From IMG/VR virus record IMGVR_UViG_3300011625_000001, positions 1 through 54,379 of that record: a DNA stretch of 54,379 bases. One strand, written 5' to 3'. Of the stretch, positions 3,100-54,293 are shown in pieces (within the stretch, counting starts at the first letter, position 1; the number at the start of each line of letters is the position of its first letter). The notes under the pieces were generated by a model. That model made no database searches, was not told the DNA's origin, and worked only from the letters and a program-made list of their open reading frames with translations. Made by a program: the position numbers and the translations under genes. The DNA is from a virus.

Positions 3100-3864
3100 C
3101 TAGAATGGAATATCCATGTCGTCAACTATTGGGCCACCATTCGGTGCCTGATTATTGGCTGGCGCGCTGTTACCCTGCTGATTGTTATAGCCTTGCTGTG
3201 GTGCTGTGCCGCGTGAGTAAGTTGTACCTCCCTGTGGCGGCTGGCTAGCACGCTGATTGTTATAACCGCCTTTATTGCCACCCATCTGAGCATCAACTTC
3301 TTTTTCTGACTTTAGCGAGTAGCCAATCAAGCGCTCCATCTGTACTTCAATTTGCTGTGGTGCCGCCTGATCCTTTTGTTCTTGCAAAGTCTGGCGCTTC
3401 TGATTAAAGGCTGCGAATAACTGTGTCTTTTTACGCTTCTCGCCGTTATAGATTTCAAACTCGTCAATAAACAGACCAGTGAAATGCTTGCCCATCAACT
3501 CATTAGCGACTGTCATCTGAGTTGGGACCACCTTGCCAGCGGCAGCATCGTACTTGTCGATATTGGCTTGCGTTGGTGTAAGGGTCGTAACGCCAGTGAC
3601 CGCCATAATACTTTGCAGTTGGTTGTAAAAGCCTTCGATATAACTGCCGTCCTGCTTCATAAACCAAAGAGTGAAATAACCTTTTTGACCGTCTTTGTTG
3701 AACACATCAAAAGCCATACCGGTTGTGCCAGTGTTGTTCGATACGACAAACTCAGCGCGGCCAATTTTGACCAGTTGTTCGCTGTTGCCGTCAAAGAATT
3801 GACCGCCACCCGTATTGGCTTTAAGTGCGGCAGTCTCGTTTAACTGAATAGTAGGGAAATTCAT
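3100..3864 (-). CDS. Phage single-stranded DNA-binding protein (DUF669-like core, Q/G/N-rich linker, host-SSB-type acidic tip)
   Basis: Ends in DDMDIPF, the canonical bacterial SSB C-terminal tip. A G/Q/N/P-rich linker precedes it. The gene lies directly downstream of a Sak4-like ATPase, as in Sak4-DUF669 modules. Confidence 0.7.
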   Translation of the reverse strand: MNFPTIQLNETAALKANTGGGQFFDGNSEQLVKIGRAEFVVSNNTGTTGMAFDVFNKDGQKGYFTLWFMKQDGSYIEGFYNQLQSIMAVTGVTTLTPTQANIDKYDAAAGKVVPTQMTVANELMGKHFTGLFIDEFEIYNGEKRKKTQLFAAFNQKRQTLQEQKDQAAPQQIEVQMERLIGYSLKSEKEVDAQMGGNKGGYNNQRASQPPQGGTTYSRGTAPQQGYNNQQGNSAPANNQAPNGGPIVDDMDIPF

Positions 3865-3885: not shown

Positions 3886-4545
3886 TTAGGCTGTTTGTGC
3901 CTGTTGATTAGGGTTTTTAGCAATGCCGTAGAAGTCGCAGATTGCGTCATCTACAGCGTTTAAATCATTGGGTATTAGTTCGCTGGCAAACATTTCATGC
4001 GGCGTTTTGACAGTGGTTGTGCCGTCATTCTTGGTCATAAAGTAATGCTCGCCATTTCTAATAGTGGTTTGCAGTACGATAGTCACCATGCCTTCAAGTA
4101 CAATTTTTTCATCAAGCATCTTGCCCATCGTTTTAATCTTGGTCTTACCGTCCACCTCTTCGATATGCGACAAGATATAGATACGTTGGTCAGGGTGCGT
4201 ATTATTGATAGCCGTGTTCAGAATGTTCCAAGCGTTCTGACCAATCCGATTAAAGCGCTGGAATACTGAGTTGCCACCACCTTCATCTGTCACACCGCGC
4301 ATAAACTCATTGGCCATGATGTACTGGAAGTCATCGATAATCACGATAGGCGCTTGAAAGGTTGGCAAACGATCATTAATCTCGTAAGCGTTATCCGTGT
4401 TCAGCTTTCTAAATTGCTTGCCGGCTCGAAAGGGTAGCGGCTTACCCATGACGTTAATAACGCCACATAGCGACGGGTCAAGGTTTTGCATACTAAAAGA
4501 CTTGCCCGAACCGCTATTGCCTAACACTAAAGTCACGATAGCCAT
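3886..4545 (-). CDS. Sak4-like (AAA_24) RecA-fold recombination ATPase
   Basis: Walker A GNSGSGKS and Walker B VIIDDF. Small size and adjacency to the SSB gene fit this family. Confidence 0.7.
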   Translation of the reverse strand: MAIVTLVLGNSGSGKSFSMQNLDPSLCGVINVMGKPLPFRAGKQFRKLNTDNAYEINDRLPTFQAPIVIIDDFQYIMANEFMRGVTDEGGGNSVFQRFNRIGQNAWNILNTAINNTHPDQRIYILSHIEEVDGKTKIKTMGKMLDEKIVLEGMVTIVLQTTIRNGEHYFMTKNDGTTTVKTPHEMFASELIPNDLNAVDDAICDFYGIAKNPNQQAQTA

Positions 4546-5858: not shown

Positions 5859-5884
5859 AAAAAAACCGCTAATGAAGGCGGTTT
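5859..5884 (-). terminator. Intrinsic terminator T3 of the island operon
   Basis: Minus strand: stem AAACCGC/GCGGTTT, loop CTTCATTA, then a run of 7 T. Confidence 0.7.
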
Positions 5885-5921
5885 GGTGGGAAAGCAATAT
5901 GAAATTAATTGTTAATTTACG

Positions 5922-5943
5922 AAAAAACCCGCACAAAGCGGGT
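5922..5943 (-). terminator. Intrinsic terminator T2
   Basis: Minus strand: CCCGC-TTTGT-GCGGG followed by TTTTTT. Confidence 0.7.
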
Positions 5944-5962
5944 CGGGTGTAGGATAGGCGAT

Positions 5963-5986
5963 AAAAAACCCACCGGTGGTGGGTTT
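5963..5986 (-). terminator. Intrinsic terminator T1, immediately after the methyltransferase stop
   Basis: Minus strand: CCCACC...GGTGGG stem followed by TTTTTT. Lies 15 nt downstream of the stop at 6001. Confidence 0.7.
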
Positions 5987-6000
5987 GATCGTTCTAGGTA

Positions 6001-6858
6001 TTAAGCTATCTTCAGTCTTTCATGTTCAAGGCTATCAAAGTGTTGTGATGTTATAAACAGCTCATTGCCAACTCGTTTCTTTGCAGCACTGTAGTTGATG
6101 TCAAACTGATACTGAGCAAAGTTTTTGTATAAGTCACTAATTTCAGGGGTGTTATCGTAAGTAAGCAACCAAGGCAAATCTGTTTTGGCCAATTTTTCAG
6201 AAACGGCCGCATGGTCTTCATGATTATAGAAATTAGTGTATAAAGACTGGCCTTTATTATAGTACGGAGGGTCTACCATAAGCAGGGGCTTGGGCAGTGC
6301 AAGACTCTCTAGCTTTTCCATGAACTCGATTGCATCCATATTGTAAATATGAATCTTATCTTTAATCGCAGCAATCTGATGAACTTTTTTTATTAAAGCC
6401 ACCTTGTTAAATCGGCAATCCATTCTATAGGCACCATCTTGCTTCTTTCCACCTATAACTCCGGCTTTAATAATGCCAGACCGGTTGGTACGATTAAGGA
6501 AGAGGGTAGAGAACGCAAGCTCTAAAGGATCCACAGTATCTTTAATATCCTGTATGGCTTTTTGCTTATACCATTCGTCCATATCGATTTTGGTCAAACT
6601 AATAAGGTTGGCTAGCTCTTCTGGCTGATGGACTATAGCGCTCCATAATGAAGCAATTGATTGATCTATATCATTGAGGTGCAGCTCTTCAACTACATTG
6701 TTGGTTAGTAATCTTAAGGCAAGGCCACAGCCACCAGCATAAGGCTCAGCATACTGGCACAGCTCCATATCATGGCTTGCAATAACGTCACGAGTCATAT
6801 CATAAATACTAGCTTTGCCGCCTGGATAACGGAGAGGCGAGAGTGAGCGCTTAATCAT
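6001..6858 (-). CDS. D12-class (Dam-type) N6-adenine DNA methyltransferase
   Basis: RYPGGK near the N-terminus, EPYAGGCG (SAM motif I, aa 38-45), FLNRTNRSG, and DPPYY (motif IV, aa 196-200). Motif order is alpha-group. The coding sequence is AT-rich. Confidence 0.85.
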   Translation of the reverse strand: MIKRSLSPLRYPGGKASIYDMTRDVIASHDMELCQYAEPYAGGCGLALRLLTNNVVEELHLNDIDQSIASLWSAIVHQPEELANLISLTKIDMDEWYKQKAIQDIKDTVDPLELAFSTLFLNRTNRSGIIKAGVIGGKKQDGAYRMDCRFNKVALIKKVHQIAAIKDKIHIYNMDAIEFMEKLESLALPKPLLMVDPPYYNKGQSLYTNFYNHEDHAAVSEKLAKTDLPWLLTYDNTPEISDLYKNFAQYQFDINYSAAKKRVGNELFITSQHFDSLEHERLKIA

Positions 6859-6908
6859 TTCTATGCCTTAAATTTTGTCTATATTGTAAACAAAACATGT
6901 TATAAAAT

Positions 6909-8639
6909 CTATCGTCCTTCGCCAAAATAAGTATCAACATCTAGCTTTTGGACACGTCTATGCTTCACTAATATGTTTTTCAGTTTATTCACGAACGTTT
7001 CCTGAAAATCAGCCCTTTCAGAAGGGTTGATTGTTAAATAGTACTCCAATGGACTATTTTTTACTGTTTTTAATAGTTTTTGAATATCGTTACTGTTATA
7101 GAAATCCTTAAAATCATTACGTAAGGCTCTTTCACTCTTATTCCCTTTATTCTGTTCTATTTTTACAATTTTATCAAAATCGTATTCATCTTCTGAATCA
7201 AGATTATTTAAGCCTAATTTATTCATTATTTTCTGAACGTGTTTATCAGACGTAAAGTTGGATTTATTATACCTAATGCTATTCTTCCAAAAAGAATCAT
7301 CTTCTGGAAGACTGTAGAGTAGCTTAAAAATCAATCTATCTGGCGGTTGAGAGCTAGGTAAGAGAATAACGCTTTCATTTTTCTTTATATCAATATCAAC
7401 ATCACCATCTAAAACTACAATGCTATTTTCAGTAAACTCAGGTATCTTGTATTTCTCTATAAGATTCATATAGACCGTACTACCTACACTTATATCTTTA
7501 AGGATGTTTAATACCTTATTTGTTTTTCTATCAATGATTAGCCTTTTAAAAAAATCTACAGCCTCTTTATCTTCAAAATAAACATTAGTAAGTGGAAGGT
7601 TGATTTCCTCTGAAACTTTCACAGTTCTCGTATAGAGGTCAGCATTTATATCATTCCAGTCATAATCGTTACATACTTCTAACTTGCCATAGCTATTAGT
7701 TAGAAATATGCTTTTGAAGTTATTCTCTTTTGTGTTTTTTTCTTTTTCATTTTTATAGTATATTTTTTCTATAATAGTTGGAGAGTGCGAAGATAATATT
7801 ATTTGTATATTATATTTATTACTGTAATGAATTAATACATCTACAATTCTTTCCTGAGCAAATGGAAAAAGCCCAGCATCTAACTCATCTATTATTAAGA
7901 TACCTCCATGGTAATCAGAATACTCTTCCTTTAATTTTCTAAACGAGAAAAGAGCTTGAACGATTTGTCCGACATTATCTTCTCCTGAAGAAACAGATTC
8001 ATGATCATAGTCTGTCCCGTGTACAACTGAAGAGTCGATTATACCTTTGGTTGACGTAACATTAGTACCTTTATGCTTCCCGATGATTTCATTGCAACAA
8101 CTAATAAAATCTTGCTTATTATCTTTCAAGTAATCAACATCATACACCTGATCGTTATTACGCTCAGCTACAGGCATTAATCTATTTAAGCTTAAATAAA
8201 TTATAGGATGTGTAACATTCCTAGACGTGTTATCACTTATTTTACCTGGTAAGTTGTTACGAACCACCGTTCTATGATTTCTACCTTCAGTATCTGTCAT
8301 AGCTAGTTTAAGATTTTCAATATCTTGTTTAAAATAAGCATCGTAAACACTGTATGAAACATTCATTTCTCCTGGTTTATCGTGTTTTGCTGAAAGACGA
8401 AAGTGATCACTAAATCTGGATTTAAATTGCTTACCATTTAATGTTTTATGCTCTATTTTTTCATCCGTTATATAATTTTTATCAAAGCTGAAAATTTGCG
8501 CTACAAGCCCTAGTATTGTCGATTTTGCCGTACCATTCTTACCACTAATGACAGTAACTTTCTGTCCAAACTCAATGTCGATATCTTTCATATTCCTAAA
8601 TTTTTTGACTGACATTTTTTTTAGAACAGTGGGTTGCAT
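6909..8639 (-). CDS. OLD-family-like protein: ABC/AAA_15-type ATPase fused to a TOPRIM/DUF4435-like C-terminal domain
   Basis: Walker A GKNGTAKST (aa 33-41), SSGE (217-220), Walker B ILIIDELD (247-254), SSHS (283-286). Then VYFEDKE (353-359) and VVLDGDVD (408-415) about 55 aa apart, the E...DxD spacing of TOPRIM. The coding sequence is AT-rich. Confidence 0.7.
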   Translation of the reverse strand: MQPTVLKKMSVKKFRNMKDIDIEFGQKVTVISGKNGTAKSTILGLVAQIFSFDKNYITDEKIEHKTLNGKQFKSRFSDHFRLSAKHDKPGEMNVSYSVYDAYFKQDIENLKLAMTDTEGRNHRTVVRNNLPGKISDNTSRNVTHPIIYLSLNRLMPVAERNNDQVYDVDYLKDNKQDFISCCNEIIGKHKGTNVTSTKGIIDSSVVHGTDYDHESVSSGEDNVGQIVQALFSFRKLKEEYSDYHGGILIIDELDAGLFPFAQERIVDVLIHYSNKYNIQIILSSHSPTIIEKIYYKNEKEKNTKENNFKSIFLTNSYGKLEVCNDYDWNDINADLYTRTVKVSEEINLPLTNVYFEDKEAVDFFKRLIIDRKTNKVLNILKDISVGSTVYMNLIEKYKIPEFTENSIVVLDGDVDIDIKKNESVILLPSSQPPDRLIFKLLYSLPEDDSFWKNSIRYNKSNFTSDKHVQKIMNKLGLNNLDSEDEYDFDKIVKIEQNKGNKSERALRNDFKDFYNSNDIQKLLKTVKNSPLEYYLTINPSERADFQETFVNKLKNILVKHRRVQKLDVDTYFGEGR

Positions 8640-8668: not shown

Positions 8669-8696
8669 ATTGTATTTAATTATATAATATTGCCAA
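8669..8696 (-). promoter_or_regulatory. Dedicated sigma70-type promoter of the OLD-like/methyltransferase operon
   Basis: Minus strand: TTGGCA (8696-8691), 16-nt spacer, TACAAT (8674-8669). AGGAA lies 9 nt upstream of the ATG at 8639. Confidence 0.55.
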
Positions 8697-8787: not shown

Positions 8788-9081
8788 TCAACCACCCGGA
8801 CAAATACTCTCACACGGCACACCGTCGTTATCTCTATCCAGCTTAGTATTGCCACACTTAAGCGCTTGCTTGGCTTGCTCACAGCTCACCATCTGCCCAC
8901 AAGTACGCGGCAAGCCTTTGCACTGTGAACCGCCAGCACCTTTAGCGAATAGTGGGTGATCAACCTCAACAGATTCCTTCAGGACAGAATTGCCTTGAAA
9001 TGGATTGTCTACTGTCTTAACTCCAGCATTGGAGGATAGGGCGAACACAGATAATGCCGCTGCTAGTATTAACTTTTTCAT
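8788..9081 (-). CDS. Secreted Excalibur calcium-binding-domain protein
   Basis: The likely start MKKLILAAALSVFALSSNA is a Sec signal peptide. C-terminal SCEQAKQALKCGNTKLDRDNDGVPCE matches the Excalibur DxDxDGxxCE motif. It lies downstream of cI on the same strand. Confidence 0.7.
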   Translation of the reverse strand: MKKLILAAALSVFALSSNAGVKTVDNPFQGNSVLKESVEVDHPLFAKGAGGSQCKGLPRTCGQMVSCEQAKQALKCGNTKLDRDNDGVPCESICPGG

Positions 9082-9130
9082 GATTACGTCCTTGTATTGC
9101 TTTAGATGCGTCGAATCTGAGGTAAGCACA

Positions 9131-9353: not shown

Positions 9354-10094
9354 TTAGTATTCGACATATTTACCTACGACTTTTCCTACTAGGTTGCAGT
9401 CACCCATTGGCATCATTTTTTGTTCGTGCCAATCAGGATTAAGCGGCTTTAAGTACATATCATTTGATTTTTCACCTATTACCAACTGCTTGAATGTAGC
9501 TTCCGTGTCGTCATTACACTGAACAACTACTAAGTCACTATCTTTAAGGGCGAATAATCCAGTCTCAGGCTCAACATAGATTATTTCATTAGGCTTAAAC
9601 TCAGGCAGCATGCTGCGCCCTTGAACGCGCAAGCAAAAACCGTTCTTAGATAGGTTAGGAGGGCGTGGCGCTTTGCCTATAGCATCTAGCATCGTTACAG
9701 ACTCAATATTAGACCAACTACCAGCCGCTACCCAGCTCAGTATAGGCACCATGCTGGGATCTTCTGATATAGAGACGCGTCGAGTATCGATAGGCAGGTT
9801 AAATAAATCATCCCCACCTTTCCCTTGTATCTCTTTTATTTGCGCTCTTAACTCGTCGATAGATGGATTTTTAGGCACATCTAACATTTCACCATGATTA
9901 TTAATCAACCAGTCAGCATTCACACCAGTAGTCTTAGCTATATCAAATAGGCTAGATGATTCTTTATTTCTATCATTCTCAATATCTGATATAGCGCCTT
10001 GCGATGTCTTAACTTTTTTTGCAAGTTGTACTTGGGTTAGTCCTGCGTGTTTACGGGCTTTTTTAACCCTATCTCCAAGACTTTCAATATTCAT
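9354..10094 (-). CDS. cI: CI-like repressor (XRE HTH plus S24 LexA-type autopeptidase)
   Basis: N-terminal HTH LTQVQLAKKVKTSQGAISDIE, candidate Ala-Gly cleavage site (VAAGSW), and GRSMLPEF serine motif. Divergent from the cro-like gene. Confidence 0.9.
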   Translation of the reverse strand: MNIESLGDRVKKARKHAGLTQVQLAKKVKTSQGAISDIENDRNKESSSLFDIAKTTGVNADWLINNHGEMLDVPKNPSIDELRAQIKEIQGKGGDDLFNLPIDTRRVSISEDPSMVPILSWVAAGSWSNIESVTMLDAIGKAPRPPNLSKNGFCLRVQGRSMLPEFKPNEIIYVEPETGLFALKDSDLVVVQCNDDTEATFKQLVIGEKSNDMYLKPLNPDWHEQKMMPMGDCNLVGKVVGKYVEY

Positions 10095-10209: not shown

Positions 10210-10419
10210 ATGACCAACACTATCAATTGGACGTCTATTGTCCGAGACCTATTGAAAGATAGGACGCAAATTGAACTGCAAGAAATAACTGGTGTGCATC
10301 AAGGCGTTATTAGCGACCTTAAGAGCGGCAAACCTAAACCGCACCTTACATACATCAATGGCGCTGCATTAATAAAGGCTCATCAAGAGCTTTGCCAAGA
10401 ACAAACAGAGGAGGCCTAA
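10210..10419 (+). CDS. cro: Cro-like HTH regulator
   Basis: 69 aa with HTH ELQEITGVHQGVISDLKSGK. Divergent from cI across the operators. Confidence 0.75.
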   Translation: MTNTINWTSIVRDLLKDRTQIELQEITGVHQGVISDLKSGKPKPHLTYINGAALIKAHQELCQEQTEEA

Positions 10420-14771: not shown

Positions 14772-15296
14772 GTGATTTTGATAGGGATAGACACAGGGGT
14801 GAGCACTGGTTTTGCGTGGAGCATCAACGGTAGGTTTCAAAGCATCGATACTGAATCGATTTTGAGCGCACAGGAGCGAGTATTAAGTATCGCTGGTGAT
14901 GTTGGTCACGCTGGCATGAATGTGATTGTGTGTATTGAAGACGTGAGACTGCGCAAGTGGGTACAAAAAGGCGTTGGCAATGAGCGTATGCAAGGCGTCG
15001 GCTCAGTAAAGCGTGATTGTAGTATCTGGCAAGAGTTTTGTGAGCGCAACGGCATACCGCATATCTTTGTCGCGCCAAAAGCGATACAGACCAAGCTTAG
15101 CGAAAAAGACTTCAATATGATTACTAAGTGGCCATACCAAACGTCAGGGCACGCACGAGACGCAGCGATGATGATTGACAAGGTTTATCGATTGCTAAAG
15201 CGCAAGCATATCAACATACCAGCTAAGTTTGAGCCAAAAATTAAGAAACCGCGCAAGCCAGCGCTATACAAAGTTAAAAAGGAGAAGGCGTTGTGA
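14772..15296 (+). CDS. RuvC-like Holliday junction resolvase
   Basis: N-terminal IGIDTGVSTGFAW and C-terminal SGHARDAAMM motifs. GTG start. Confidence 0.7.
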   Translation: MILIGIDTGVSTGFAWSINGRFQSIDTESILSAQERVLSIAGDVGHAGMNVIVCIEDVRLRKWVQKGVGNERMQGVGSVKRDCSIWQEFCERNGIPHIFVAPKAIQTKLSEKDFNMITKWPYQTSGHARDAAMMIDKVYRLLKRKHINIPAKFEPKIKKPRKPALYKVKKEKAL

Positions 15297-16288
15297 GTGA
15301 GATTAAAGCAGGGCTTTGGCAAAACACGCTTGATGGTAGTTTTATCAAAGTTATCCGTATAAGTGAGTCTTTTGCTGCATACAACGAAGATGATTGTAAG
15401 TACAGATACACAATGAGCATAAACGAGCTTGTTAGCTGCTATAAACCGGTAGAGGCAGAGAGGCCGGCACCAGCGATTGACGACACATTCAACGATGACA
15501 CGCCAGCGCAGACGTTTGGTGATATTCAGTGGGACGAAGGTACGCAGGATAGGACTGAGGAGGTTGTGGTTATACCATGTCCTAAATGCCAAAAAGCTGT
15601 GCCATACGATAAACACGGCGCTTTATTCCTCATTGGGAAACAGGCTGTTTGTTCTGACTGCTATGTTAATAATGATGGAGAAAGGTTTTACGCTGGCAAG
15701 AAGTACACAACTAGAATACCAAACCCATGGCGTAGAGATGAGGAGAAGGTGGAGGTTTCTAGCAAGATGCGCCTCATCGGTATCGCAGGACCAGCACGCG
15801 CAGGCAAGGACACACTCGCCAGCTACTTACTTGATAATTTAAGCGATGACTGGTCGCGCTCATCGTTCGCTGATCCGATTAAAAAAATGCTTGAAGTTAT
15901 AGGTGTGGATTGTAGCGATGAGGCAAAGGCGGTGATTGATGATCGTTTTTGCTACACACCTCGCCATATGATGCAGATATTAGGCACTGAATGGGGTCGT
16001 GAGATGATCCACGGTAATATCTGGGTAGAGGCTTTTGCTCGCTTGAACGCTGGCGAGTGCGTGATTGTGCCTGATGTTCGTTTTGAGAATGAAGCTGAGT
16101 TGGTGCGGGAGCATGGCGTACTCATTCATCTGGTTGGACGCGGTGGTATCGAAGGCAATCACGTATCAGAGAACGCTATTGAGTTTAAGCCTGGTGATAT
16201 CGTGATTGATAACTCGCGTGACTTGGCTTGGTTGCATGGTCAGGTTGATGGTAATGCGGTTTTGGGTGAGTTTGTGAGTGCTGAATAA
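15293..16288 (+). CDS. Deoxynucleoside monophosphate kinase fused to an N-terminal Zn-ribbon domain
   Basis: The C-terminal half (IGIAGPARAGKDTLA...FADPIKKML...PRHMMQILGTEWGR...VPDVRFENE) matches the phage dNMP kinase pattern. The N-terminal ~160 aa contain CPKC...CSDC. Confidence 0.65.
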   Translation: MSEIKAGLWQNTLDGSFIKVIRISESFAAYNEDDCKYRYTMSINELVSCYKPVEAERPAPAIDDTFNDDTPAQTFGDIQWDEGTQDRTEEVVVIPCPKCQKAVPYDKHGALFLIGKQAVCSDCYVNNDGERFYAGKKYTTRIPNPWRRDEEKVEVSSKMRLIGIAGPARAGKDTLASYLLDNLSDDWSRSSFADPIKKMLEVIGVDCSDEAKAVIDDRFCYTPRHMMQILGTEWGREMIHGNIWVEAFARLNAGECVIVPDVRFENEAELVREHGVLIHLVGRGGIEGNHVSENAIEFKPGDIVIDNSRDLAWLHGQVDGNAVLGEFVSAE

Positions 16289-18220: not shown

Positions 18221-18886
18221 ATGGCAGATAATATTTGCGGTGCTAAGACACGAGCTGGCAAGCCTTGTAGAAAATCGCCCGTCGAGGGTAAGAAGCGTTG
18301 CCGATTGCATGGTGGGCTGTCAACTGGACCCAGTAAGGGCAGTAGAAATAATCTAAAGCATGGCATCTACAGTCGTATCTTTGATGACAGTCAGATAGAC
18401 GATGCGATAGCAATGCAGGGCACAGTAAGCCGCGAGCTTGCAATCGCACGCATACAGCTGGCTAATTGCTTGGCTTATCGCAAAGCGCAGGGTGACACGC
18501 CAGCGCTGGACGAGATTAAAGACGAGACGCTGGCTGACGAAGAAGATGAAGATGTCGTTAAGAAAGCTCGCGCTAAAGATGCAGCTAGGTGTGGTGAATA
18601 TTATGATCCCAATGAAGATGATTATGGCGGGCAAGAGTCAGAGCCGCTAAAACGCACAAGAGTTTATCGCACACGCGACTGGGCAAACGAAGAAGCCCGG
18701 CTGATTAACTTGATTGCTAAGCTTGAGATGCAGCTAATCAAACAAAGCATAGCGACGCTTGAGCTTGAGCAGCGCAAAAAACTGATGGAGGCAGCAGAAC
18801 GTAGAGAGTCTGGCAGCGGCAGAAACGTAGAGGACATGACAGATGAGCAGCTTAACGCCTACTTGGAGCAGCTACTCAAGTCTTAG
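18221..18886 (+). CDS. Putative small terminase subunit
   Basis: Lies immediately upstream of and overlapping terL. The N-terminal basic Cys motif CGAKTRAGKPCRKSPVEGKKRCRLHGGLSTGP is common in small-terminase-position proteins. Confidence 0.45.
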   Translation: MADNICGAKTRAGKPCRKSPVEGKKRCRLHGGLSTGPSKGSRNNLKHGIYSRIFDDSQIDDAIAMQGTVSRELAIARIQLANCLAYRKAQGDTPALDEIKDETLADEEDEDVVKKARAKDAARCGEYYDPNEDDYGGQESEPLKRTRVYRTRDWANEEARLINLIAKLEMQLIKQSIATLELEQRKKLMEAAERRESGSGRNVEDMTDEQLNAYLEQLLKS

Positions 18887-20369
18887 CGAACTTGCCAGCA
18901 GATTACCAGATTTAAAGAAGCTCACTGCTAAGCAAAAAATTGCGCTCATTAATATCATCAAAGAGATCAAGAAGCGCAAGAAGTACAAGCTCAACGAGTT
19001 ATTCCCCAATGAAGGGCCATTTGCCAGACATGGTTATACCAAGCACCTATCGTTCTTCAGTGATGGCGCGTTCTACGGCTCGCGCTTATTCATGGCGGGT
19101 AACCGTGTCGGCAAGACGATTGCGGGCACGTATGAAGATACGTTGCACGCAACTGGCCTTTATCCTGAATGGTGGGAAGGCAAGCGCTTTGACCATCCAA
19201 CGAAGGGTTGGATTGCTGGCAAGACGAACGAGACTACACGCGACATTCTGCAAGTCGAATTGTTTGGCAACGTCGTCTTTAAAGATGGTGGCAAGAAAAA
19301 GACCATAGACGGCACTGGCATTATTCCAATCCACTTGATTGACCAAAAATCAATCAGATGGAAGTCTGGCGTTGCTGACTTGATCGATACAGTCAAGGTC
19401 AAACATGCCAGCGGTGGCTGGTCGTACATTGGTTTGAAGTCATACCAACAAGGGCGAGGAAGTTTTGAAGGTACGGCGATGCACTACATCCATCTGGATG
19501 AGGAACCGCCAGAAGAAGTTTATACCGAGTGTTTGACGCGGACAGCAACGACACGCGGCTTGATTTATATCACGTTTACGCCGCTGATGGGCGTAACGCC
19601 GATGGTCAAGAACTTCATTGAGAAAGCCGATGAGGGAATTACCAGTGTTACACGCGCTACTTGGAACGACGCGCCGCATTTAACAGACGATGACAAGGCA
19701 AACTACTTAGCGCTATTTCCGAAACACGAGCACAAAGCGCGTATGGAGGGCATACCGTATGCAGGCAGTGGTCTTATCTATCCGATTGACGAAGATGAAA
19801 TCATCGTTGAACGTTTCGATATACCGGCGCACTGGCCGCAAATCAAAGGTATGGACTTTGGATGGGACCATCCAACGACGTGCGTTACGCTGGCATGGGA
19901 TAGAGACAACGACATTGTTTATGTCACGGACGAATATGCAGCACGTGAGCGCACACCACGCGAGCACGCGCCACACTTTAACGATAACGGATCATGGCAG
20001 CCAGTCGCATGGCCGCATGATGGTTATCAGCATGACAAAGGCAGCGGCTTAACACTCGCTGAGCAGTACCGAGACGAAGGCGTCAACATGTTGGATGAAA
20101 ATGCCACGCATGATGATGGTAGTAATGGCGTCGAGGCTGGCTTGATGGAAATACTACAGCGCATGGAGACTGGCAGATTGCTGGTGTTCAGTGATTGTAC
20201 CGAGTGGCAGGACGAACGCCGCACCTATCATCGAGACAAAGGCAAGATCAAGAAGCTATACGATGACTTGATGGATGCCACACGCTACGGCGTGATGATG
20301 TTAAGACATGCGAAGGTCAAGCCGCGAGCAGGACGCAATCGAGTTAATAATAATACGACGGTTTTATAA
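18843..20369 (+). CDS. terL: Large terminase subunit
   Basis: Walker A-like AGNRVGKT, Walker B YIHLDEEP, and nuclease-domain DDLMDATRYGVM. The start may lie downstream of 18843. Confidence 0.9.
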   Translation: MSSLTPTWSSYSSLSELASRLPDLKKLTAKQKIALINIIKEIKKRKKYKLNELFPNEGPFARHGYTKHLSFFSDGAFYGSRLFMAGNRVGKTIAGTYEDTLHATGLYPEWWEGKRFDHPTKGWIAGKTNETTRDILQVELFGNVVFKDGGKKKTIDGTGIIPIHLIDQKSIRWKSGVADLIDTVKVKHASGGWSYIGLKSYQQGRGSFEGTAMHYIHLDEEPPEEVYTECLTRTATTRGLIYITFTPLMGVTPMVKNFIEKADEGITSVTRATWNDAPHLTDDDKANYLALFPKHEHKARMEGIPYAGSGLIYPIDEDEIIVERFDIPAHWPQIKGMDFGWDHPTTCVTLAWDRDNDIVYVTDEYAARERTPREHAPHFNDNGSWQPVAWPHDGYQHDKGSGLTLAEQYRDEGVNMLDENATHDDGSNGVEAGLMEILQRMETGRLLVFSDCTEWQDERRTYHRDKGKIKKLYDDLMDATRYGVMMLRHAKVKPRAGRNRVNNNTTVL

Positions 20370-33113: not shown

Positions 33114-36100
33114 ATGACAGTAAAAATTCGTTTGCCAAACATACCGCGCAGCGCAGACCGTGACACAATGGTGTTTTTCAAAGGCTTGAAGGTTGCACTT
33201 GAGACACTTGCCAGCAGTGACGCGGATAGCAATATCAGCGCTAAGACCAGACAGTATATTCAGCAGCTTAATAAAAAAAGCAATCAAGAGCTTGTAGATG
33301 TTTTAGGAGATTCATTAGGGGTTGGCAATCTGCTTGATATCCTAAATGGCAGTATAACCAATTCGCAGTTGCATAAAGATTTAAGCACACGCATAGAAAA
33401 GATAACATCTAATGAAAACGCGATTAGCCAAGAGCGCTTGGAGCGTGTGGCTGATGTGTTGGCCGCTAACGAGGCGCTTATACAAGAGCGCCGCGACAGG
33501 GTGCAAGCGATCACAGATAGCTCAAATCTATTACAGCAAGATATCGATGCAGAAGTTTCGGCTCGAGTAAACGCGATAAGCGATACCAGAGATCAAGTAT
33601 TAGCTGAGCGCAACGAGCGTGTGGCTGACCTATTGCTTGTTAATGGCAAGATAACCCAAGAAGCAGAAGATAGACTTCAAGCCATTGCTGCAACCAACAC
33701 TGCATTAGAGGGTGAGACGCGAGATCGTATTGCCGCCATACTTGCCGCTAATACCGCTATAGATTCTGAGCGCGAAGCACGTATAGCAAGCGTTCTGGAA
33801 AATAGCAACGCCATCGCAACAGAGGCACAGGAACGAGCTGACGCTATTCTTGCGACCAACCAAGCGGTGACTGACGAGCGCCGTGACCGTATCGAAGAAG
33901 TCAAAAACAAGGCGTCCGAATTACAGAGCAAAATTGACGCAGAAGGTGCAGAGCGATTACGTCTTGATAACTTGTTAGCACAGGACATTGTAAATGAAAC
34001 AACGCAGCGTCAAAATGAAACGGGCGTCTTGACCGAACAGTTTAACGGCGTTTATGCTCAAGTCAATCCGAGAATGGCTGGTGACGTTAATGGCTGGGCG
34101 GGTGATAATGATTATTTTGCAGGGGTTTGGTCCTTGCAATCAGCACGTATTGAAGATGGACTTGCGACAGCAAAGAATTTTGATGTGGTAAAAGCAAGCA
34201 TTGATAGTAATACTGCCACTATTAGCCAAGTGAATACAGCGCTAGTAACCAAAACAGAGGTGGTCGCGAATCAAATTGACATGCTATCTGCGCAAATGGT
34301 TGGTGGGTATAAAGGTAGTGACTTAAACCAAGTAACGTCAGGGCTTATTTTCCAAGAGCGAACCGCTAGAGCTACCGAGTTTGAGGGATTGGCAGAGCAA
34401 GTAAGCTTGCTATCGGCTGGCGTGGGTGAGCAGTTTGACCCATTTGAGATATGGCACTTTAACGAGGATAAGGATGGTTGGACTGGTGGCACGTATAACA
34501 ACGGATTCATCGACGTTAGTAACGACACGCTAACAAGCCCAGCGATTGATATCAACGGTTCTATGTATCGCCATATAAAGATGCGTATCAAGAAAGTTGG
34601 CAACCCTACATGGTCCGCAAAGATTATGTATGGCGCTATTGAGCAAACAGAGAAAGAACCAGACTTTGACCTTGACGGTATTGCAACCATATCTATTCGT
34701 ATGCAGTGGACCGGTACAGTAACAGGCCTTACTTTACGGTTAAGTGATATCGCGAGCACCACTAATTACTATTCTATCGACTGGATAGCAGTCGGCAGAC
34801 CGTCACCTGGCGCTAGTAGTGCAGCCTTACTTAATGAGCAGCGTGCAAGATCAGAGAAAGACGAAGCGCTTGCGCAATCAATAACCACGCTTGATAGTAA
34901 AGTGAATACTGAAACCAGTAATCTATCGTCAACCATCACGCAGGGCTTAACCACTTTAACCACAGCCACAGAAACCAACGCCACTAATATATCAGGACTT
35001 AGCTCGCGCATAGATGGTGAGCTTGGTGATATAACAGCAGTCATCGATGGTAATTATCAGACTCAGGCGACAGAAAACGCAGCCACCGCCGTTAAGTTAG
35101 ATAGCGTCATAGCTAAGGCCGGTGCGAATTCAGCAGCGATCACAAGCGAAGCCAGCGCAAGAGTCTCCGAAGATGAGGCATTAAGCAGCCGCATTGATAC
35201 GTTGGTATCAACCACTGATGCAAACTCAGCAGCCATTGAGTCAGAGGTGACAGCCAGAACTACGCAGGACACAGCGCTTAGTAGTCGTATTGACACGCTA
35301 ACAGCTACGACTGGAGAGAACACCGCAGCTATTCAAACAGAGGTTGCTGCTAGAGCCACCGAGGACGACGCCCTAAGTAGCAGGATTGAAACACTTGTTG
35401 CTACCACTGGTAGCAATACCGCAGCAATCACCTCAGAAGTAACAGCCAGAACCACTGAGGATACCGCACTTAGTGGACGCATTGACACCCTATCTTCCAA
35501 GACCGATGGTAGCTTAGCGTTAATTACTAGCGATATTGAGACACTAACCACCGACACAACCGCGACGGCCACAAAACTAGATGGGGTTTTTGCACAAATT
35601 AATCCCAAGCTGGCAGGTGATACGGACGGCTGGGCAGGTGATACGGAAAGCTATGTTGGCGTGTGGACTGAACAATCAGCACGTATTGAAGAAGATTTTG
35701 CGCTAGGTCAACGCATTGATACTTTGAACGCAGATTTCGATAACAGCAATGCTTTAATACAAAGTAATTACAAAGTGCTTGCAGAAGTAGATAGCGCACT
35801 TGCTATGCAGACCGATGTTATTCGCGCTAGAACTGAGCAGAATACCGCTGCTATCAATACTGAAACGCAGGCGCGTACTGACGCTAATAGCGCTATGTCT
35901 AGCCGTATCGATACGCTGAGCGCTGTAACGGATGATAATAAAGCTACCATTACCAGTGAATCGATTGCGCGTACCAGCGAGGACGAGGCGCTTAGCAAGC
36001 GCATTAACACGATTGTTGCAACAACCAATGGCAACGCCGCCGCTATTCAGACTGAGGCTACCGCACGAACCAATGCTGATAGTGCCATGTCTAACCGTAT

Positions 36101-38756
36101 TGATACGCTGACTACCACGACTGGCGAAAATAGCGCCGCTATCCAAACAGAGGTCACAGCGCGTACTGACGCCGATAGTGCATTGAGCACGAGGATTGAA
36201 ACACTCGTTGCAACGACAGGCACTAATACAGCATCCATCGCTCAAGAAGTTATTACTCGAACCACTGAAGATGAGGCATTAAGCAGCCGCATTGACACGT
36301 TGGTATCAACCACTGGCACCAACTCAGCGCTTATTCAAACAGAAACGCAAGCACGTACCAATGCTGATAGCTCACTAAGCAGTAGAATAGACACATTGGT
36401 ATCAACCACGGGCGAAAACACTGCCGCCATTCAAGACAATTTTGAGGCGCTAACGACCGAAAATAGCGCTCAAGCAAAACGGATTGACGGGGTTTACGCG
36501 CAAGTTAATCCAAAAATGGCAGGTGATACCGAAGGGTGGGCAGGTGATGATAGTCCGCAAAACCTAGTGGGCGCATGGAGTGAGCGCAGTGCGATTATTG
36601 AAAACGATTTGTCAATGGCAAAGCGCGTCGATGGCTTAACCACCGAGGTAGGTAATAACAAAGCAACCATCACTGAGGTTAATAAAACCCTAGTCACTAA
36701 AAACGAGGCGGTGGCGTCGCAGATAAATCGCCTCGCCGCGCAAATGACCGGAGGTTATAACGGCGATGACTTATCACAGCTAACATCGGGGCTTATTCAT
36801 CAAGAACGCACCGCACGCGCGACTGACATTGAAGGATTGGCAGAGCAAGTAAGCTTGCTATCGGCTGGCGTGGGTGAGCAGTTTGATAGTTTTGAGATCT
36901 GGCACTTTGATAAAAATCATGACGGCTGGGTAAACGGTGTTTACGCGAACGGCTGGATCAACGTCAGAACCGAAACCATTAATAGCCCGGTAATTAGTGT
37001 TGATGGCAGTATGTATCGGCATGTCAAACTACGCATACAAAAAGTAGGTACGCCAACATGGGCTGCGTTACTGACGTATGCTGGCGGCAGCTTAACCGCG
37101 GCTGAGCCTGAATATACACCAGAAGGGTTTGCGATTGTTAATTTCTACATGGAATGGTCAGGAACTGTTACGGGGTTTAGCCTAAAGCTTGCCAGCCTAG
37201 CAGACAACTTAAACTACTTTAAGATTGACTGGATAGCGGTCGGCAGACCGTCACCTGGCGCAAGTCATGCCGCGCTACTACGTGAAGAAAAAGCGCGGGC
37301 CGATAAAGATACAGCGCTGACACAGCAATTTGTCTCGCTTGATAGTCAGATTAATGGTGATGGGGTTAATTCGTCATCATCTATCGTGCAAAAGCTTGAA
37401 ACTACCGCTACTAAAACCGATACCAATGCCACTGATATATCAAACCTATCATCAACTTTTAATGATGAGGTGATGAGTAGTCAAGGTATCGTGGCTCGTA
37501 ACGCGCAGACAGCCGCCAGTGCCAGTGCTGCTAATGCAAGCGATATTAGTGGGGTGTTTGCTCAGGTAAATCCGCGCATGGCAGGTGATGAAGAAGGCTG
37601 GGCGGGTGACGATTCACCAGAGAATCTGGTCGGTGTTTGGAGTGAGCGTAGCGCAAGCCAAGAGCTTGAGTATTCAACCAGCCAGCAATTCGATGCGGTG
37701 TACTCAAGAGTGGACGGCAATAGCGCCGCTATCTCAACTGAAAGTAAAACGCGGGTAGATGCTATCAAAGCATTGTCAGAACAAACCACAACCATACGCG
37801 CAGACTTTGCGGCCAACGCTGGTGTAATGCAGACCGCTATCACGGCGGTGGCTGATGCCAACACTGCATTATCCAAACGCACTGATACCATACAATCAAC
37901 CGTTGGCGAGCATACATCGTCTATACAAACAGCGCAAAGTGCTATCAATGGTATCAATGCGAGCTGGACAATCCGCGCTGATGTGAATGGAGTGATAGGT
38001 GGGCTTGGGATTGCCAATGATGGTCGCACCGTTGATTTTCTTGTGAGCGCTGGCAGGTTTGCGATTGCCGGGCAGAATGGAAGCACGTCAACACCGTTTG
38101 TATCGATACCTGATGGCACAGTGATTGATGGTGTGACTATACCGGCAGGTAACTACTTAGAAGATACTTTTATTCGTAGAGCGTCGATTGATACTTTAGA
38201 TATTAAAGGTAATGCGGTAACGGTGCCAGTATCGGCATTTACAGAGGCAGCGATAGAGGTTGGAAGTCTGTACGAGACAATACAAAGTTTGTTTGTACCG
38301 GCCGATATGGGTCATACCATGCTAAATTTTAATGCTATTTTCAACTTCCCAGGTTACGCGCGTAAGCAAAGTATTTTATGTCGTATCGTAAAGGGCGGCG
38401 CGGTGATTGCTGACAATATAGAGGTGTTTTTTAGTGAAGCAAGGTCAGCAAGCCGAGTAACGTCTGCCGTTGATGCGTCAGGGCACAATCACGGCGGAAG
38501 CTTTCAAGGCTCAGCCTACGTCAACGGGCAGTTCATCAATATTGGTGGACCAGTACATATAGATTATGCATCCGGTGGTTCTCATAGTCACAATATCGAT
38601 GTGGCGAACGACAACCGAAATGCAGGCAGTTTTTCGTTATCAAGACACGATAGTACGGGGGTGGCTGGCACTTATGAGCTACAAATGCGTGTGGCTGATG
38701 GAAGCACTGCCAATTTATCCCAACGTTACATTCATGCCATGACCATGCGGAGATAA
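33114..38756 (+). CDS. Giant repetitive tail fibre / host-specificity protein (1880 aa) with J-like C-terminal region
   Basis: About eleven 32-aa repeats (..ARTxxDxALSSRIDTLvxTTGxNxAAIQxE..). Two ~265-aa duplicated modules. Four GV[YF]AQ[VI]NPxxAGDxxGWAGD motifs. C-terminal WTIRADVNGVIGGLGIANDGRTVDFLVSAGRFAIAG resembles lambda J / DUF1983. Confidence 0.8.
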   Translation: MTVKIRLPNIPRSADRDTMVFFKGLKVALETLASSDADSNISAKTRQYIQQLNKKSNQELVDVLGDSLGVGNLLDILNGSITNSQLHKDLSTRIEKITSNENAISQERLERVADVLAANEALIQERRDRVQAITDSSNLLQQDIDAEVSARVNAISDTRDQVLAERNERVADLLLVNGKITQEAEDRLQAIAATNTALEGETRDRIAAILAANTAIDSEREARIASVLENSNAIATEAQERADAILATNQAVTDERRDRIEEVKNKASELQSKIDAEGAERLRLDNLLAQDIVNETTQRQNETGVLTEQFNGVYAQVNPRMAGDVNGWAGDNDYFAGVWSLQSARIEDGLATAKNFDVVKASIDSNTATISQVNTALVTKTEVVANQIDMLSAQMVGGYKGSDLNQVTSGLIFQERTARATEFEGLAEQVSLLSAGVGEQFDPFEIWHFNEDKDGWTGGTYNNGFIDVSNDTLTSPAIDINGSMYRHIKMRIKKVGNPTWSAKIMYGAIEQTEKEPDFDLDGIATISIRMQWTGTVTGLTLRLSDIASTTNYYSIDWIAVGRPSPGASSAALLNEQRARSEKDEALAQSITTLDSKVNTETSNLSSTITQGLTTLTTATETNATNISGLSSRIDGELGDITAVIDGNYQTQATENAATAVKLDSVIAKAGANSAAITSEASARVSEDEALSSRIDTLVSTTDANSAAIESEVTARTTQDTALSSRIDTLTATTGENTAAIQTEVAARATEDDALSSRIETLVATTGSNTAAITSEVTARTTEDTALSGRIDTLSSKTDGSLALITSDIETLTTDTTATATKLDGVFAQINPKLAGDTDGWAGDTESYVGVWTEQSARIEEDFALGQRIDTLNADFDNSNALIQSNYKVLAEVDSALAMQTDVIRARTEQNTAAINTETQARTDANSAMSSRIDTLSAVTDDNKATITSESIARTSEDEALSKRINTIVATTNGNAAAIQTEATARTNADSAMSNRIDTLTTTTGENSAAIQTEVTARTDADSALSTRIETLVATTGTNTASIAQEVITRTTEDEALSSRIDTLVSTTGTNSALIQTETQARTNADSSLSSRIDTLVSTTGENTAAIQDNFEALTTENSAQAKRIDGVYAQVNPKMAGDTEGWAGDDSPQNLVGAWSERSAIIENDLSMAKRVDGLTTEVGNNKATITEVNKTLVTKNEAVASQINRLAAQMTGGYNGDDLSQLTSGLIHQERTARATDIEGLAEQVSLLSAGVGEQFDSFEIWHFDKNHDGWVNGVYANGWINVRTETINSPVISVDGSMYRHVKLRIQKVGTPTWAALLTYAGGSLTAAEPEYTPEGFAIVNFYMEWSGTVTGFSLKLASLADNLNYFKIDWIAVGRPSPGASHAALLREEKARADKDTALTQQFVSLDSQINGDGVNSSSSIVQKLETTATKTDTNATDISNLSSTFNDEVMSSQGIVARNAQTAASASAANASDISGVFAQVNPRMAGDEEGWAGDDSPENLVGVWSERSASQELEYSTSQQFDAVYSRVDGNSAAISTESKTRVDAIKALSEQTTTIRADFAANAGVMQTAITAVADANTALSKRTDTIQSTVGEHTSSIQTAQSAINGINASWTIRADVNGVIGGLGIANDGRTVDFLVSAGRFAIAGQNGSTSTPFVSIPDGTVIDGVTIPAGNYLEDTFIRRASIDTLDIKGNAVTVPVSAFTEAAIEVGSLYETIQSLFVPADMGHTMLNFNAIFNFPGYARKQSILCRIVKGGAVIADNIEVFFSEARSASRVTSAVDASGHNHGGSFQGSAYVNGQFINIGGPVHIDYASGGSHSHNIDVANDNRNAGSFSLSRHDSTGVAGTYELQMRVADGSTANLSQRYIHAMTMRR

Positions 38757-52905: not shown

Positions 52906-54162
52906 CTAGTAAATCTTGTACAACCTCTCGATAACTTCCTCTTGTGACATGCCAGCCTCATTAAAAATAAACTCTTCAATATCGTTCATTGCAGTACGCA
53001 GTCTTTTTTGACTGACTTGAATGTACTGCAATGTCACATCGTCAGACGCTTTCGATGTTCGATGATTCATCAAGCGCTTGATAACCGATATATTTAAATT
53101 AAGAATATCGCCAATGGTCGAGAAGGTCCGGCGTAGATCGTGCGGCGTGATACAAATGCCAGCTGCATCACCAATATTTCTATACTGCCTTGATATGTCA
53201 GTCAGATTTCCATCATGCTCAGTCAAGCGAGAAGGGAATACCCAAGGTTCATTTTTTCGGTAGTGGTGACGATGCCCCATCATTGCGCACATGACTTTAC
53301 CCAATGGCACATGCAAGGTATCACCATTTTTAGTCTCATGAATAGTCATAGTACCGTGTTTTAAATCAATAAAATCCCATCTTAATGTGTAACCTTCGCT
53401 GGCACGTATGCCGGTGCACAGAAATAGCAGCATGATATCGCGTGCATTATTACTATGAGGCTGCATGTTATGAAAATCCTCACTCTTAAAATCAGTGAGT
53501 ACGCGCACATAGTTGCCCATCGTATCTTCATTGAGATAAGTCGTGCGAGGCTTAACCGTGTTCCACAATTTTTTGGCTGTCAGTATCTCAACCGGACTTA
53601 GCTTAATAATAGGAGATTCGGAATTGTCTAAAAAGCTTAGCCTAGCAAAATTCCACACGGCATTAAGGGCTCTAAAAGTGGCATTGGCTTGTGACGGGCT
53701 CAACTTGGTAAGCTCTAAATGCTTTTCGGTGACATTGCTTTGCATGATCTCGTTCATCGACCTATCTTGCCATTCTGCCAACTTGCCCGGTATCTGCCGA
53801 TTATAGGTGTTGATAGTCGACTGCTTCAGTCCCGGCTTATGAGTAATATAATATTCATAAGCTTCACCAAGTGTGGGAACTATCACGTCTTTCATATCAT
53901 CATTGAATGGATCACGGCCTTGCATCAATTCACTAATGATAGACATGGCTTGCTCGCGTGCATCCTGCAAAGTCATGACTGAGCAATCACCGATAGACTT
54001 ACGGATCATCTTTCCGCCAATCCGCTTGCTAATCATGTAGCTTTTATTTGTCTTATTGGTACGCACGGCAAAACCGTTGACCAACTCATCTTGGATGATA
54101 TCCGCTTTATCAGAGTATTCAAGCGCGTCTATAAAGCGCTTGGTTAGTTTAACCCGTGCCAT
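52906..54162 (-). CDS. int: P4-type tyrosine integrase
   Basis: Likely start MARVKLTKRFIDAL (ATG at 54162). N-terminal arm-binding domain pattern (VNGFAVRTNKTNKSYMISKRIGGKMIRKSIG...LQDAREQA). C-terminal HDLRRTF and LMNH catalytic motifs. Adjacent to the tRNA att site. Confidence 0.9.
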   Translation of the reverse strand: MARVKLTKRFIDALEYSDKADIIQDELVNGFAVRTNKTNKSYMISKRIGGKMIRKSIGDCSVMTLQDAREQAMSIISELMQGRDPFNDDMKDVIVPTLGEAYEYYITHKPGLKQSTINTYNRQIPGKLAEWQDRSMNEIMQSNVTEKHLELTKLSPSQANATFRALNAVWNFARLSFLDNSESPIIKLSPVEILTAKKLWNTVKPRTTYLNEDTMGNYVRVLTDFKSEDFHNMQPHSNNARDIMLLFLCTGIRASEGYTLRWDFIDLKHGTMTIHETKNGDTLHVPLGKVMCAMMGHRHHYRKNEPWVFPSRLTEHDGNLTDISRQYRNIGDAAGICITPHDLRRTFSTIGDILNLNISVIKRLMNHRTSKASDDVTLQYIQVSQKRLRTAMNDIEEFIFNEAGMSQEEVIERLYKIY

Positions 54163-54293
54163 TTTAGCCTGCCTATTCCGTATATTTACTTGGGTATCAT
54201 AGCCGATAAGCGAGATTATAAGAAGTGCCCACAAAGTGCCCATACAGGGGTTTATCGTACACTACAGCAAGCCAGCCAAAAACATTAGGCAAC

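Follow-up and report, generated by a model that had tools for sequence, protein, structure and literature searches.

A phage-borne gene pair of an OLD-like ATPase and a DNA methyltransferase of the PD-λ-5 clade

Why should an OLD-like ATPase share a small cassette with a DNA methyltransferase (MTase)? The question is raised by the IMG/VR virus record IMGVR_UViG_3300011625_000001, whose whole 54,379-nt stretch, called the window here, represents a temperate phage or prophage with a probable host in Psychrobacter or elsewhere in the Moraxellaceae. Two adjacent genes in its lysogeny region encode a 576-residue ABC ATPase with a predicted C-terminal Toprim-like domain and a 285-residue MTase. The original prediction, made from the DNA letters alone, had read the pair as an uncharacterized defense system, in which either methylation marks self and an OLD-like nuclease attacks unmodified invaders, or an OLD abortive-infection module is carried together with an anti-restriction methylase. 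Both open reading frames were found where it had placed them, 50 nt apart and with every quoted motif at the residues given, and, as it had also noted, the pair has no restriction or specificity gene beside it in the window. Searches of the literature on OLD or Toprim proteins with an MTase partner turned up no paper describing the pair. The combination is also absent from PADLOC-DB 2.0, which holds no model matching the ATPase protein over its full length (REBASE and the latest DefenseFinder models lay outside the search), and current annotation therefore probably misses the pair.

Conservation of the pair and exchange of the effector

Homologues of the ATPase protein were collected from one genome per species, which yielded 80 loci at 38-68 % identity from Gamma- and Betaproteobacteria, Bacteroidota, Acidobacteriota, Geobacter, and Mycobacterium. 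The original prediction had treated the two genes as partners, and their neighborhood across genomes bore this out: tblastn located the MTase in 78 of the 80 loci, and the contigs of the remaining two end at the ATPase gene. The MTase gene lies directly downstream and on the same strand in about 72 of the 80, and in many of the loci the two frames overlap or are 1-3 nt apart. Wherever the contig reached far enough, no solitary ATPase homologue was present in the 80 genome loci, an asymmetry expected if the nuclease needs the MTase. Pairwise identities of the ATPase proteins and of the MTases were correlated (r = 0.80 over 77 loci). These observations support the pair as a conserved functional unit, and the near-obligate co-occurrence and overlapping frames disfavor the second form of the original prediction, an abortive-infection module accompanied by an unrelated anti-restriction methylase.

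No known system had been named for the MTase, and this has to be revised. It belongs to the PD-Lambda-5_B clade, that of the validated defense system PD-λ-5 (PMC9519451), and the PADLOC model PD-Lambda-5_B (PDLC04018) aligned with residues 4-279 over profile positions 3-278 of 291 (9.8e-116, 384 bits). The protein carries the motifs RYPGGK, EPYAGGCG, FLNRTNRSG, and DPPYY, and EPxAGG and DPPY were invariant among 16 aligned MTases drawn from both partner types. Its earlier description as a Dam-class adenine enzyme is unproven. Its score with the NCBIfam model dam (TIGR00571), 59.7 bits, falls short of the cut-off of 114.85, and among solved structures that of M.CbeI came closest (7m6b; profile E of 1.9e-29, versus 1e-8 for DpnM and 1e-5 for E. 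coli Dam). Because M.CbeI, an alpha-class N4-cytosine (m4C) MTase, also has DPPY, the window enzyme may methylate either adenine or cytosine, and it may be unsafe to rely on database names in which the clade is adenine-specific. Pfam-A at E <= 0.1 gave no match for the window MTase; many homologues carry PF02086.

PD-λ-5 was selected from E. coli ECOR7 as 'ParB/HEPN, methyltransferase' and protected more broadly than the other systems of that study (Vassallo et al. 2022, PMC9519451). Its cloning needed an mrr-deleted host (PMC9519451), so its MTase is active in vivo and methylates the host genome. The window pair shares with PD-λ-5 the MTase clade and the form of a two-gene, prophage-borne cassette with the effector gene upstream of the MTase gene. 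It differs in that the ParB/HEPN protein (about 440-540 residues) is replaced by the unrelated ABC-ATPase-Toprim-like protein, and some loci have both. We rejected the possibility that the pair is PD-λ-5 itself, as the A component (ParB/HEPN) is absent; the PD-Lambda-5_A model was not among the 25 best PADLOC matches of the 576-residue protein. As a PADLOC system call needs every component, the pair, with its A component missing, would presumably not be called as PD-λ-5.

The exchange of one partner for the other can be followed between related genomes. In a syntenic related prophage, L088 (nucleotide identity of 75 % in cI and 78 % in orf113, the gene of 113 codons between cI and the cassette), the MTase is the closest viral relative of the window's (93 % protein and 87 % nucleotide identity), and the gene upstream encodes PD-Lambda-5_A in place of the ATPase. 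The MTase of Psychrobacter aquimaris (L005) is 95 % identical to that of the window. MTases in further cross-partner pairs are 82, 73, and 71 % identical, and an Acinetobacter baumannii MTase, 55 % identical to the window's, is encoded downstream of a protein scoring 3e-154 for PD-Lambda-5_A. The 93 %-identical MTases and these further pairs indicate that effectors have been exchanged on a conserved MTase repeatedly and recently. Among 80 IMG/VR contigs with MTases of this clade, the neighbor was PD-Lambda-5_A in 33, an ABC ATPase in about 20-23, and both in 2, the rest being mostly distant MTases. Three-gene forms comprising the ATPase, a PD-Lambda-5_A-like protein (by jackhmmer), and the MTase occurred in several gene orders at L105, L116, L014, L016, L060, and L081, and the last four of these account for the four apparent exceptions among the 80 genome loci. 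L173 was assumed to be another such form, its 512-residue middle protein, which has no Pfam match, being taken as putatively PD-Lambda-5_A-like.

The pair was also found in Citrobacter phage phiNP, Vibrio phage ValB1MD-2, Streptococcus phage Javan645, where it sits between cI and int, and a Clostridium butyricum prophage; the MTases of the last two are PD-Lambda-5_B proteins (378-407 bits). In the GenBank record of phiNP, about 1 kb after the gene for an 'AAA family ATPase' is unannotated and encodes a 293-residue MTase homologue (L003:927-1808; OR565852.1, 43926-44807).

In the wider neighborhoods, a DrmD-like SNF2 helicase (671 bits) is encoded upstream at about 21 of the 80 genome loci, and 18 have a Type III MTase (757 bits) downstream; these flanks place the pairs concerned within DISARM-like systems. 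L017:2986-10297 is an example of this arrangement. Remote relatives of the C-terminal domain, in proteins of about 510-520 residues, adjoin a D12 MTase in three of the four contexts looked up, and the fourth contig breaks off after the first 146 codons of the following gene. One of these relatives also has an Abi_2 (HEPN) gene beside it, as at L174, where the order is Abi_2(HEPN)-MTase-ATPase. At L175:182-8585 (ENA ERZ28634635, scaffold_125), a type V-A CRISPR locus, genes for a 520-residue ATPase and a 284-residue D12 MTase overlap by 22 nt and stand between cas12a and cas4-cas1-cas2.

These distributions bear on the simplest alternative, that the cassette consists of two independent morons, namely a stand-alone defense gene like HEC-04 and an orphan MTase that shields phage DNA against restriction by the host. 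Orphan Dam-like MTases are frequent in phages, the defense protein HEC-04/IbfA works alone, and the ATPase and MTase genes of Vibrio phage ValB1MD-2 are convergent. We nevertheless regard the two-moron explanation as improbable, given a co-occurrence that extends across phyla and outside phages into DISARM-like and Cas12a loci, overlapping frames, correlated identities, and MTases of this clade that almost always adjoin either the ATPase or PD-Lambda-5_A.

The ATPase-Toprim-like protein

The architecture proposed for the 576-residue protein, an ABC ATPase followed by a C-terminal E...DxD domain, was upheld by its motifs, its Pfam matches, and its invariant residues. GKNGTAKST (residues 33-41), ILIIDELD (247-254), and SSHS (283-286) are followed by FEDKE (355-359) and DGDVD (411-415), and K39, D251/E252, H285, E356/D357/E359, and D411/D413 were invariant in 28 homologues of 40-67 % identity. 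AAA_15 (47.5 bits) and AAA_21 (46.2 bits), the Pfam families that had been suggested for it, both scored above their cut-offs. The best PDB sequence matches were PtuA, Ts OLD (6p74), AriA, and Rad50; phrog_3940 matched over the full length (7e-150), the PADLOC model ATPase-Toprim_I-B aligned end to end, and 492 homologues were found.

An AF2 model of the full protein (mean predicted local distance difference test score, pLDDT, of 88) was then compared with solved structures by Foldseek, the top matches being Ts OLD 6p74 (E = 1e-12, 556 aligned columns), GajA 8sm3_A, and the retron Eco8 effector 9lpa_B. The protein thus resembles the OLD family (P2 Old, the Ts, Bp, and Xcc OLD proteins, GajA, and the retron Eco8 effector) in overall architecture, in its best full-length structural matches, and in size, which is close to that of P2 Old as had been proposed (576 versus 586 residues). 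It departs from the OLD classes in its company, being not solitary as in class 1 and having an MTase as partner instead of the UvrD/PcrA helicase of class 2, the retron of class 3, or the AriA/AriB arrangement of class 4; no helicase, reverse transcriptase, or AriB partner was present in the window.

When modeled alone (residues 337-576), the C-terminal domain reached a pLDDT of 94, with E356 following one strand and D411-G-D413 following another, which is the Toprim layout. The top Foldseek matches of this model were the C-terminal regions of the Xanthomonas and Burkholderia OLD proteins (6njw, 6nk8) and AriB (8ux9_A), but these matches reached E values of only 0.15-0.25, at template modeling (TM) scores of 0.22-0.35. 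Segment by segment, conservation was 0.32-0.54 in the helical C-terminal subdomain versus 0.8-0.87 in the ATPase core. In a comparison of window 6909-8639 with Psychrobacter aquimaris L005:5968-7713, the ATPase proteins were only 68 % identical, versus 95 % for the MTases, with divergence concentrated in residues 376-576; this suggests fast evolution or recombination of the C-terminal half of the effector.

The nearest validated relative of the ATPase protein, albeit distant on sequence comparison, is HEC-04/IbfA, a single-gene ABC-ATPase-TOPRIM defense that works alone (Payne et al. 2024, bioRxiv 10.1101/2024.01.29.577857; PMC12111858). HEC-04 is toxic when induced, its defense is abolished by K62A in the Walker A lysine and by E319A/D375A/D377A, and it is reported in the IbfA paper as homologous to IbfA of IncI1 plasmids. 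The HEC-04 model matched the whole 576-residue protein in three stretches (1.8e-21, 74 bits). On the C-terminal fragment alone, the HEC-04 hidden Markov model scored 25 bits (1.5e-6) over profile positions 315-477 of 494, residue 352 standing opposite position 315; it was the sole PADLOC model to match that domain by itself and the sole significant sequence link of the domain. By the register of this alignment, E356, D411, and D413 would stand opposite HEC-04 E319, D375, and D377. The two proteins share an ABC ATPase fused to a C-terminal domain of Toprim type (predicted in the window protein), an E...DxD spacing of 55-56 residues, and embedding among other defense systems. They differ in that HEC-04 is a stand-alone gene, whereas the ATPase of the window's family essentially never occurs without the MTase. 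In a tblastn search of plasmids, none of the 15 matching records was of the IncI1 (R64) type, and the first 9 kb of R64 contained no ibfA.

PARIS was also considered. The AriA and AriAB models matched only ATPase segments, AriAB over profile positions 3-86 of 694, and AriB gave no match to the C-terminal fragment at E <= 10. A fused PARIS was rejected, as the AriAB model matches the N-terminus only.

Restriction, guarding, and other modes of action

How might the two proteins work together? The reading that we favor, though we give it only about an even chance, is a restriction-modification-like logic in which the MTase marks self and probably supplies recognition while the ATPase-Toprim-like protein serves as the effector. 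The MTase would be made in the lysogen and would methylate a short motif on host and prophage DNA, which would constitute the self mark. The ATPase protein would be an ATP-dependent nuclease, with a Toprim-like metal-binding domain built around E356, D411, and D413, and would act on incoming DNA that lacks the mark. It would be the MTase, not the effector, that gives sequence recognition or methylation sensing, as we infer from the pairing of related MTases with two unrelated effectors. A nuclease-like gene that was never seen without the MTase, the invariant catalytic motifs of the MTase, the modification of the host by the PD-λ-5 MTase, and the embedding of the pair in defense and lysogeny loci together favor this logic.

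The proposed arrangement recalls Type III restriction-modification (Mod plus Res). Both have two genes, with the MTase, like Mod, proposed as the recognition subunit and an ATP-dependent nuclease subunit lacking specificity of its own, which would explain why effectors can be exchanged. Unlike Type III, the window pair has an ABC ATPase instead of a superfamily-2 helicase, a Toprim-like domain instead of PD-(D/E)xK, a small alpha-class D12 MTase, and the reversed gene order, and its complex with the MTase is hypothetical. The presence of unrelated effectors on 93 %-identical MTases makes it less likely that the effector recognizes a site on its own. A classical Type II restriction-modification system was rejected, as no known restriction-enzyme fold was present and the effectors are swapped. 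We suggest, more tentatively, that the MTase is the sensing and specificity subunit of a modular immune platform; it would mark self DNA and, on meeting unmethylated foreign sites or on being titrated by them, would license whichever effector is plugged in, be it ATPase-Toprim-like, ParB/HEPN, or both.

Several observations weigh against the restriction-modification-like reading. The first group concerns the nuclease domain. The Foldseek E values of the C-terminal model leave the Toprim assignment statistically insecure, and a search of the same model against BFVD gave no significant match. The Pfam families TOPRIM_OLD and DUF4435 were unmatched at E <= 10 in all 28 family members scanned singly (the window protein and 27 aligned with it), and hhalign gave a null result for the C-terminal profile against P2 Old, whether this was entered as one sequence or as a profile of 27 members, with a probability of 1.4 % for the family profile. 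Membership in the OLD family, as originally proposed, consequently fails at the sequence level. In keeping with these results, PF20469 (TOPRIM_OLD) was precomputed in 0 of the 120 homologues listed, versus nearly all P2 Old homologues; full-length hhalign against P2 Old gave an alignment limited to the Walker B region; and a search of the C-terminal profile against 1.84 billion representatives returned 444 relatives, the distant ones lacking a Pfam Toprim annotation and not including HEC-04. Judged by sequence, the 576-residue protein is no demonstrable member of the canonical OLD classes; it is OLD-like in architecture and, we are fairly confident, carries a Toprim-type nuclease domain as predicted.

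The second group concerns the logic itself. The validated relatives of this architecture, HEC-04/IbfA, PARIS, and the retron Eco8 effector among them, are mostly infection sensors that trigger abortive infection, not methylation-sensitive restriction enzymes. Two unrelated effectors would need to read the same mark or to dock on the same MTase. Finally, the protection given by PD-λ-5 is strongest against T-even phages with their heavily modified DNA (PMC9519451), which is unusual for classical restriction-modification.

Such points lend some weight to guarded abortive infection on the model of PrrC/EcoprrI or PARIS, the main alternative, which we consider rather unlikely but take seriously. 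Here the MTase would keep the ATPase-Toprim-like protein latent until a phage anti-restriction factor, a DNA mimic, or an S-adenosylmethionine hydrolase disabled or titrated the MTase, and the freed effector would then kill or arrest the cell, possibly by cutting tRNA or other RNA as AriB does. An ABC-ATPase effector that has a nuclease fused to it or as its partner is typically a sensor (PARIS, PrrC/RloC, retron Eco8), effector swapping on a constant MTase fits a shared guardee, and the toxicity of HEC-04 on induction points the same way. Anantharaman et al. read methylase-linked HEPN proteins in this manner, and Vassallo et al. termed PD-λ-5 a compacted 'RM+Abi' system (PMC9519451). Both PrrC with EcoprrI and PARIS resemble the window pair in coupling an ABC ATPase to a nuclease, a predicted one in the window, and in a tie to DNA modification or anti-restriction sensing; PrrC, however, carries a HEPN-type anticodon nuclease and accompanies a complete Type I system, and PARIS is without an MTase. 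The cassette has no restriction enzyme to guard, so that the lone MTase would be merely a decoy, and the invariance of the catalytic motifs in 16 MTases, together with methylation of the host genome by the PD-λ-5 MTase, suggests that the mark itself matters. In both the guarded and the restriction-modification-like reading the pair would act in defense, the outcome of which may be direct restriction or cell suicide.

The dependence of the nuclease-like gene on the MTase would also be expected of an addiction (post-segregational killing) module, or of some other non-defense role in stabilizing the prophage or island, in which a cell that lost the MTase would have its chromosome open to attack by the nuclease. 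Addictive behavior is established for restriction-modification systems, and the cassette is mobile and low in GC content. The embedding in defense loci and the validated defense roles of PD-λ-5 and HEC-04 make defense the better explanation, and we hold a primarily addictive role to be improbable, slightly more so than two independent morons; addiction and defense are not mutually exclusive.

A reversed restriction-modification, as in Pgl, was the least probable of the schemes considered, and we think it very doubtful. The MTase would mark the DNA of phages that escape an initial infection, and the nuclease would attack the marked DNA on re-infection. The only backing for this scheme is the Pgl precedent and the potency of PD-λ-5 against phages whose DNA is modified. 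The PD-λ-5 MTase constitutively methylates the host chromosome, as its incompatibility with mrr indicates, so that the host would become the target, and no regulatory component is present.

The cassette in its prophage and its wider meaning

The features of the cassette and of the surrounding prophage are collected in Table 1. The ATPase and MTase genes are arranged as an operon on the minus strand, downstream of cI; neither the strand nor the position relative to cI had been part of the original prediction. This slot is the position of rexAB in phage lambda, and P2 Old is likewise a lysogenic-conversion gene. GC content was 0.295 at positions 7001-8000, within the ATPase gene, versus about 0.46 in the rest of the window. 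With this low GC content, a promoter-like site of its own, and terminator-like hairpins, the pair looks like an imported, self-contained moron. The promoter-like site is a consensus match only, and the number of such sites in the region was not above shuffle expectation. The terminator scan gave two of the hairpins; the first (9-bp stem, 3-nt loop, and T-run) was read from the sequence directly. No further open reading frame beyond the pair was listed in the cassette, a tRNA scan of the window found none, and neither the cassette nor 20 kb of structural genes had a megablast match among GenBank phages.

Table 1. Coordinates of the cassette and of landmark genes in the window
Feature	Position	Strand	Remarks
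Tyrosine integrase	54243..52906	minus	
Large terminase	18843..20369		
cro-like gene	10210..10419	plus	
S24/helix-turn-helix cI-type repressor	10094..9354	minus	
Promoter-like site	8669..8696	minus	TTGGCA-16 nt-TACAAT; consensus scan, 10/12 matches; 30 nt upstream of ATPase start codon
Gene for 576-residue ABC-ATPase plus Toprim-like protein (putative effector)	6909..8639	minus	Open reading frame, stop codon included
ABC ATPase domain (residues 1-335)	7635..8639	minus	Walker A K39, signature-like SSGE 217-220, Walker B D251/E252, H-loop H285
Toprim-like core (residues 347-445)	7305..7601	minus	Strand 351-355 ending in E356 (FEDKE), strand 407-410 ending in D411-G-D413
Helical C-terminal subdomain (residues 446-576)	6912..7304	minus	DSSP of model; most variable part of the protein
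Intergenic spacer, 50 nt	6859..6908	minus	With AAGG ribosome-binding site; from sequence
Gene for 285-residue alpha-class (D12-type) DNA MTase, PD-Lambda-5_B clade	6001..6858	minus	DPPY encoded at 6262-6273
Three tandem terminator-like hairpins	5863..5986	minus	5986-5963, 5944-5926, 5884-5863; 3' of MTase stop codon

Between cI and the pair lie a 67-codon open reading frame and orf113 (9129..8788, minus strand), which encodes a secreted 113-residue protein that has a signal peptide along with a calcium-binding domain of the Excalibur type (3.9e-8); its nucleotide identity to the related prophages L088 and L005 is 76-78 %. Elsewhere in this temperate phage, window 15293-16288 (plus strand) encodes a deoxynucleotide monophosphate kinase domain (PF21448, 1.4e-18), which may hint at unusual nucleotide metabolism or DNA modification. 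A single 3363-codon open reading frame in the tail region (window 41829-51920, plus strand), adjoined by one of 1880 codons (33114-38756), presumably encodes a giant host-specificity or tail-fiber protein. In the early left operon, window 3100-3864 (minus strand) encodes a 254-residue protein with no Pfam match and a Gln/Gly/Asn-rich tail, whose C-terminal DDMDIPF is similar to the acidic tip of bacterial SSB, the protein that binds single-stranded DNA; the adjoining P-loop protein (3886-4545) likewise has no Pfam match.

Validated relatives exist for both halves of the cassette, PD-λ-5 in the case of the MTase and the distant HEC-04/IbfA in that of the effector, and the pair is widespread, occurring in many phyla, in prophages of Proteobacteria and Firmicutes, and inserted within DISARM-like and Cas12a loci. 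The exchange of effectors as modules is, however, a well-established feature of bacterial immunity. If the restriction-modification-like reading is true, a family of defense systems with exchangeable effectors would have the PD-λ-5 MTase as its constant core, and the pair would provide the first nuclease of OLD-like (HEC-04) type whose activity is coupled to a methylation mark on DNA. Were the modular platform also to hold, it would define a new restriction-modification-like class with interchangeable effectors, in which an OLD-like nuclease is the equivalent of Res. The natural swap between two syntenic prophages with 93 %-identical MTases would then be informative on how a self/non-self signal passes from an MTase to an unrelated nuclease, and it also bears on whether PD-λ-5 acts by restriction or by abortive infection.

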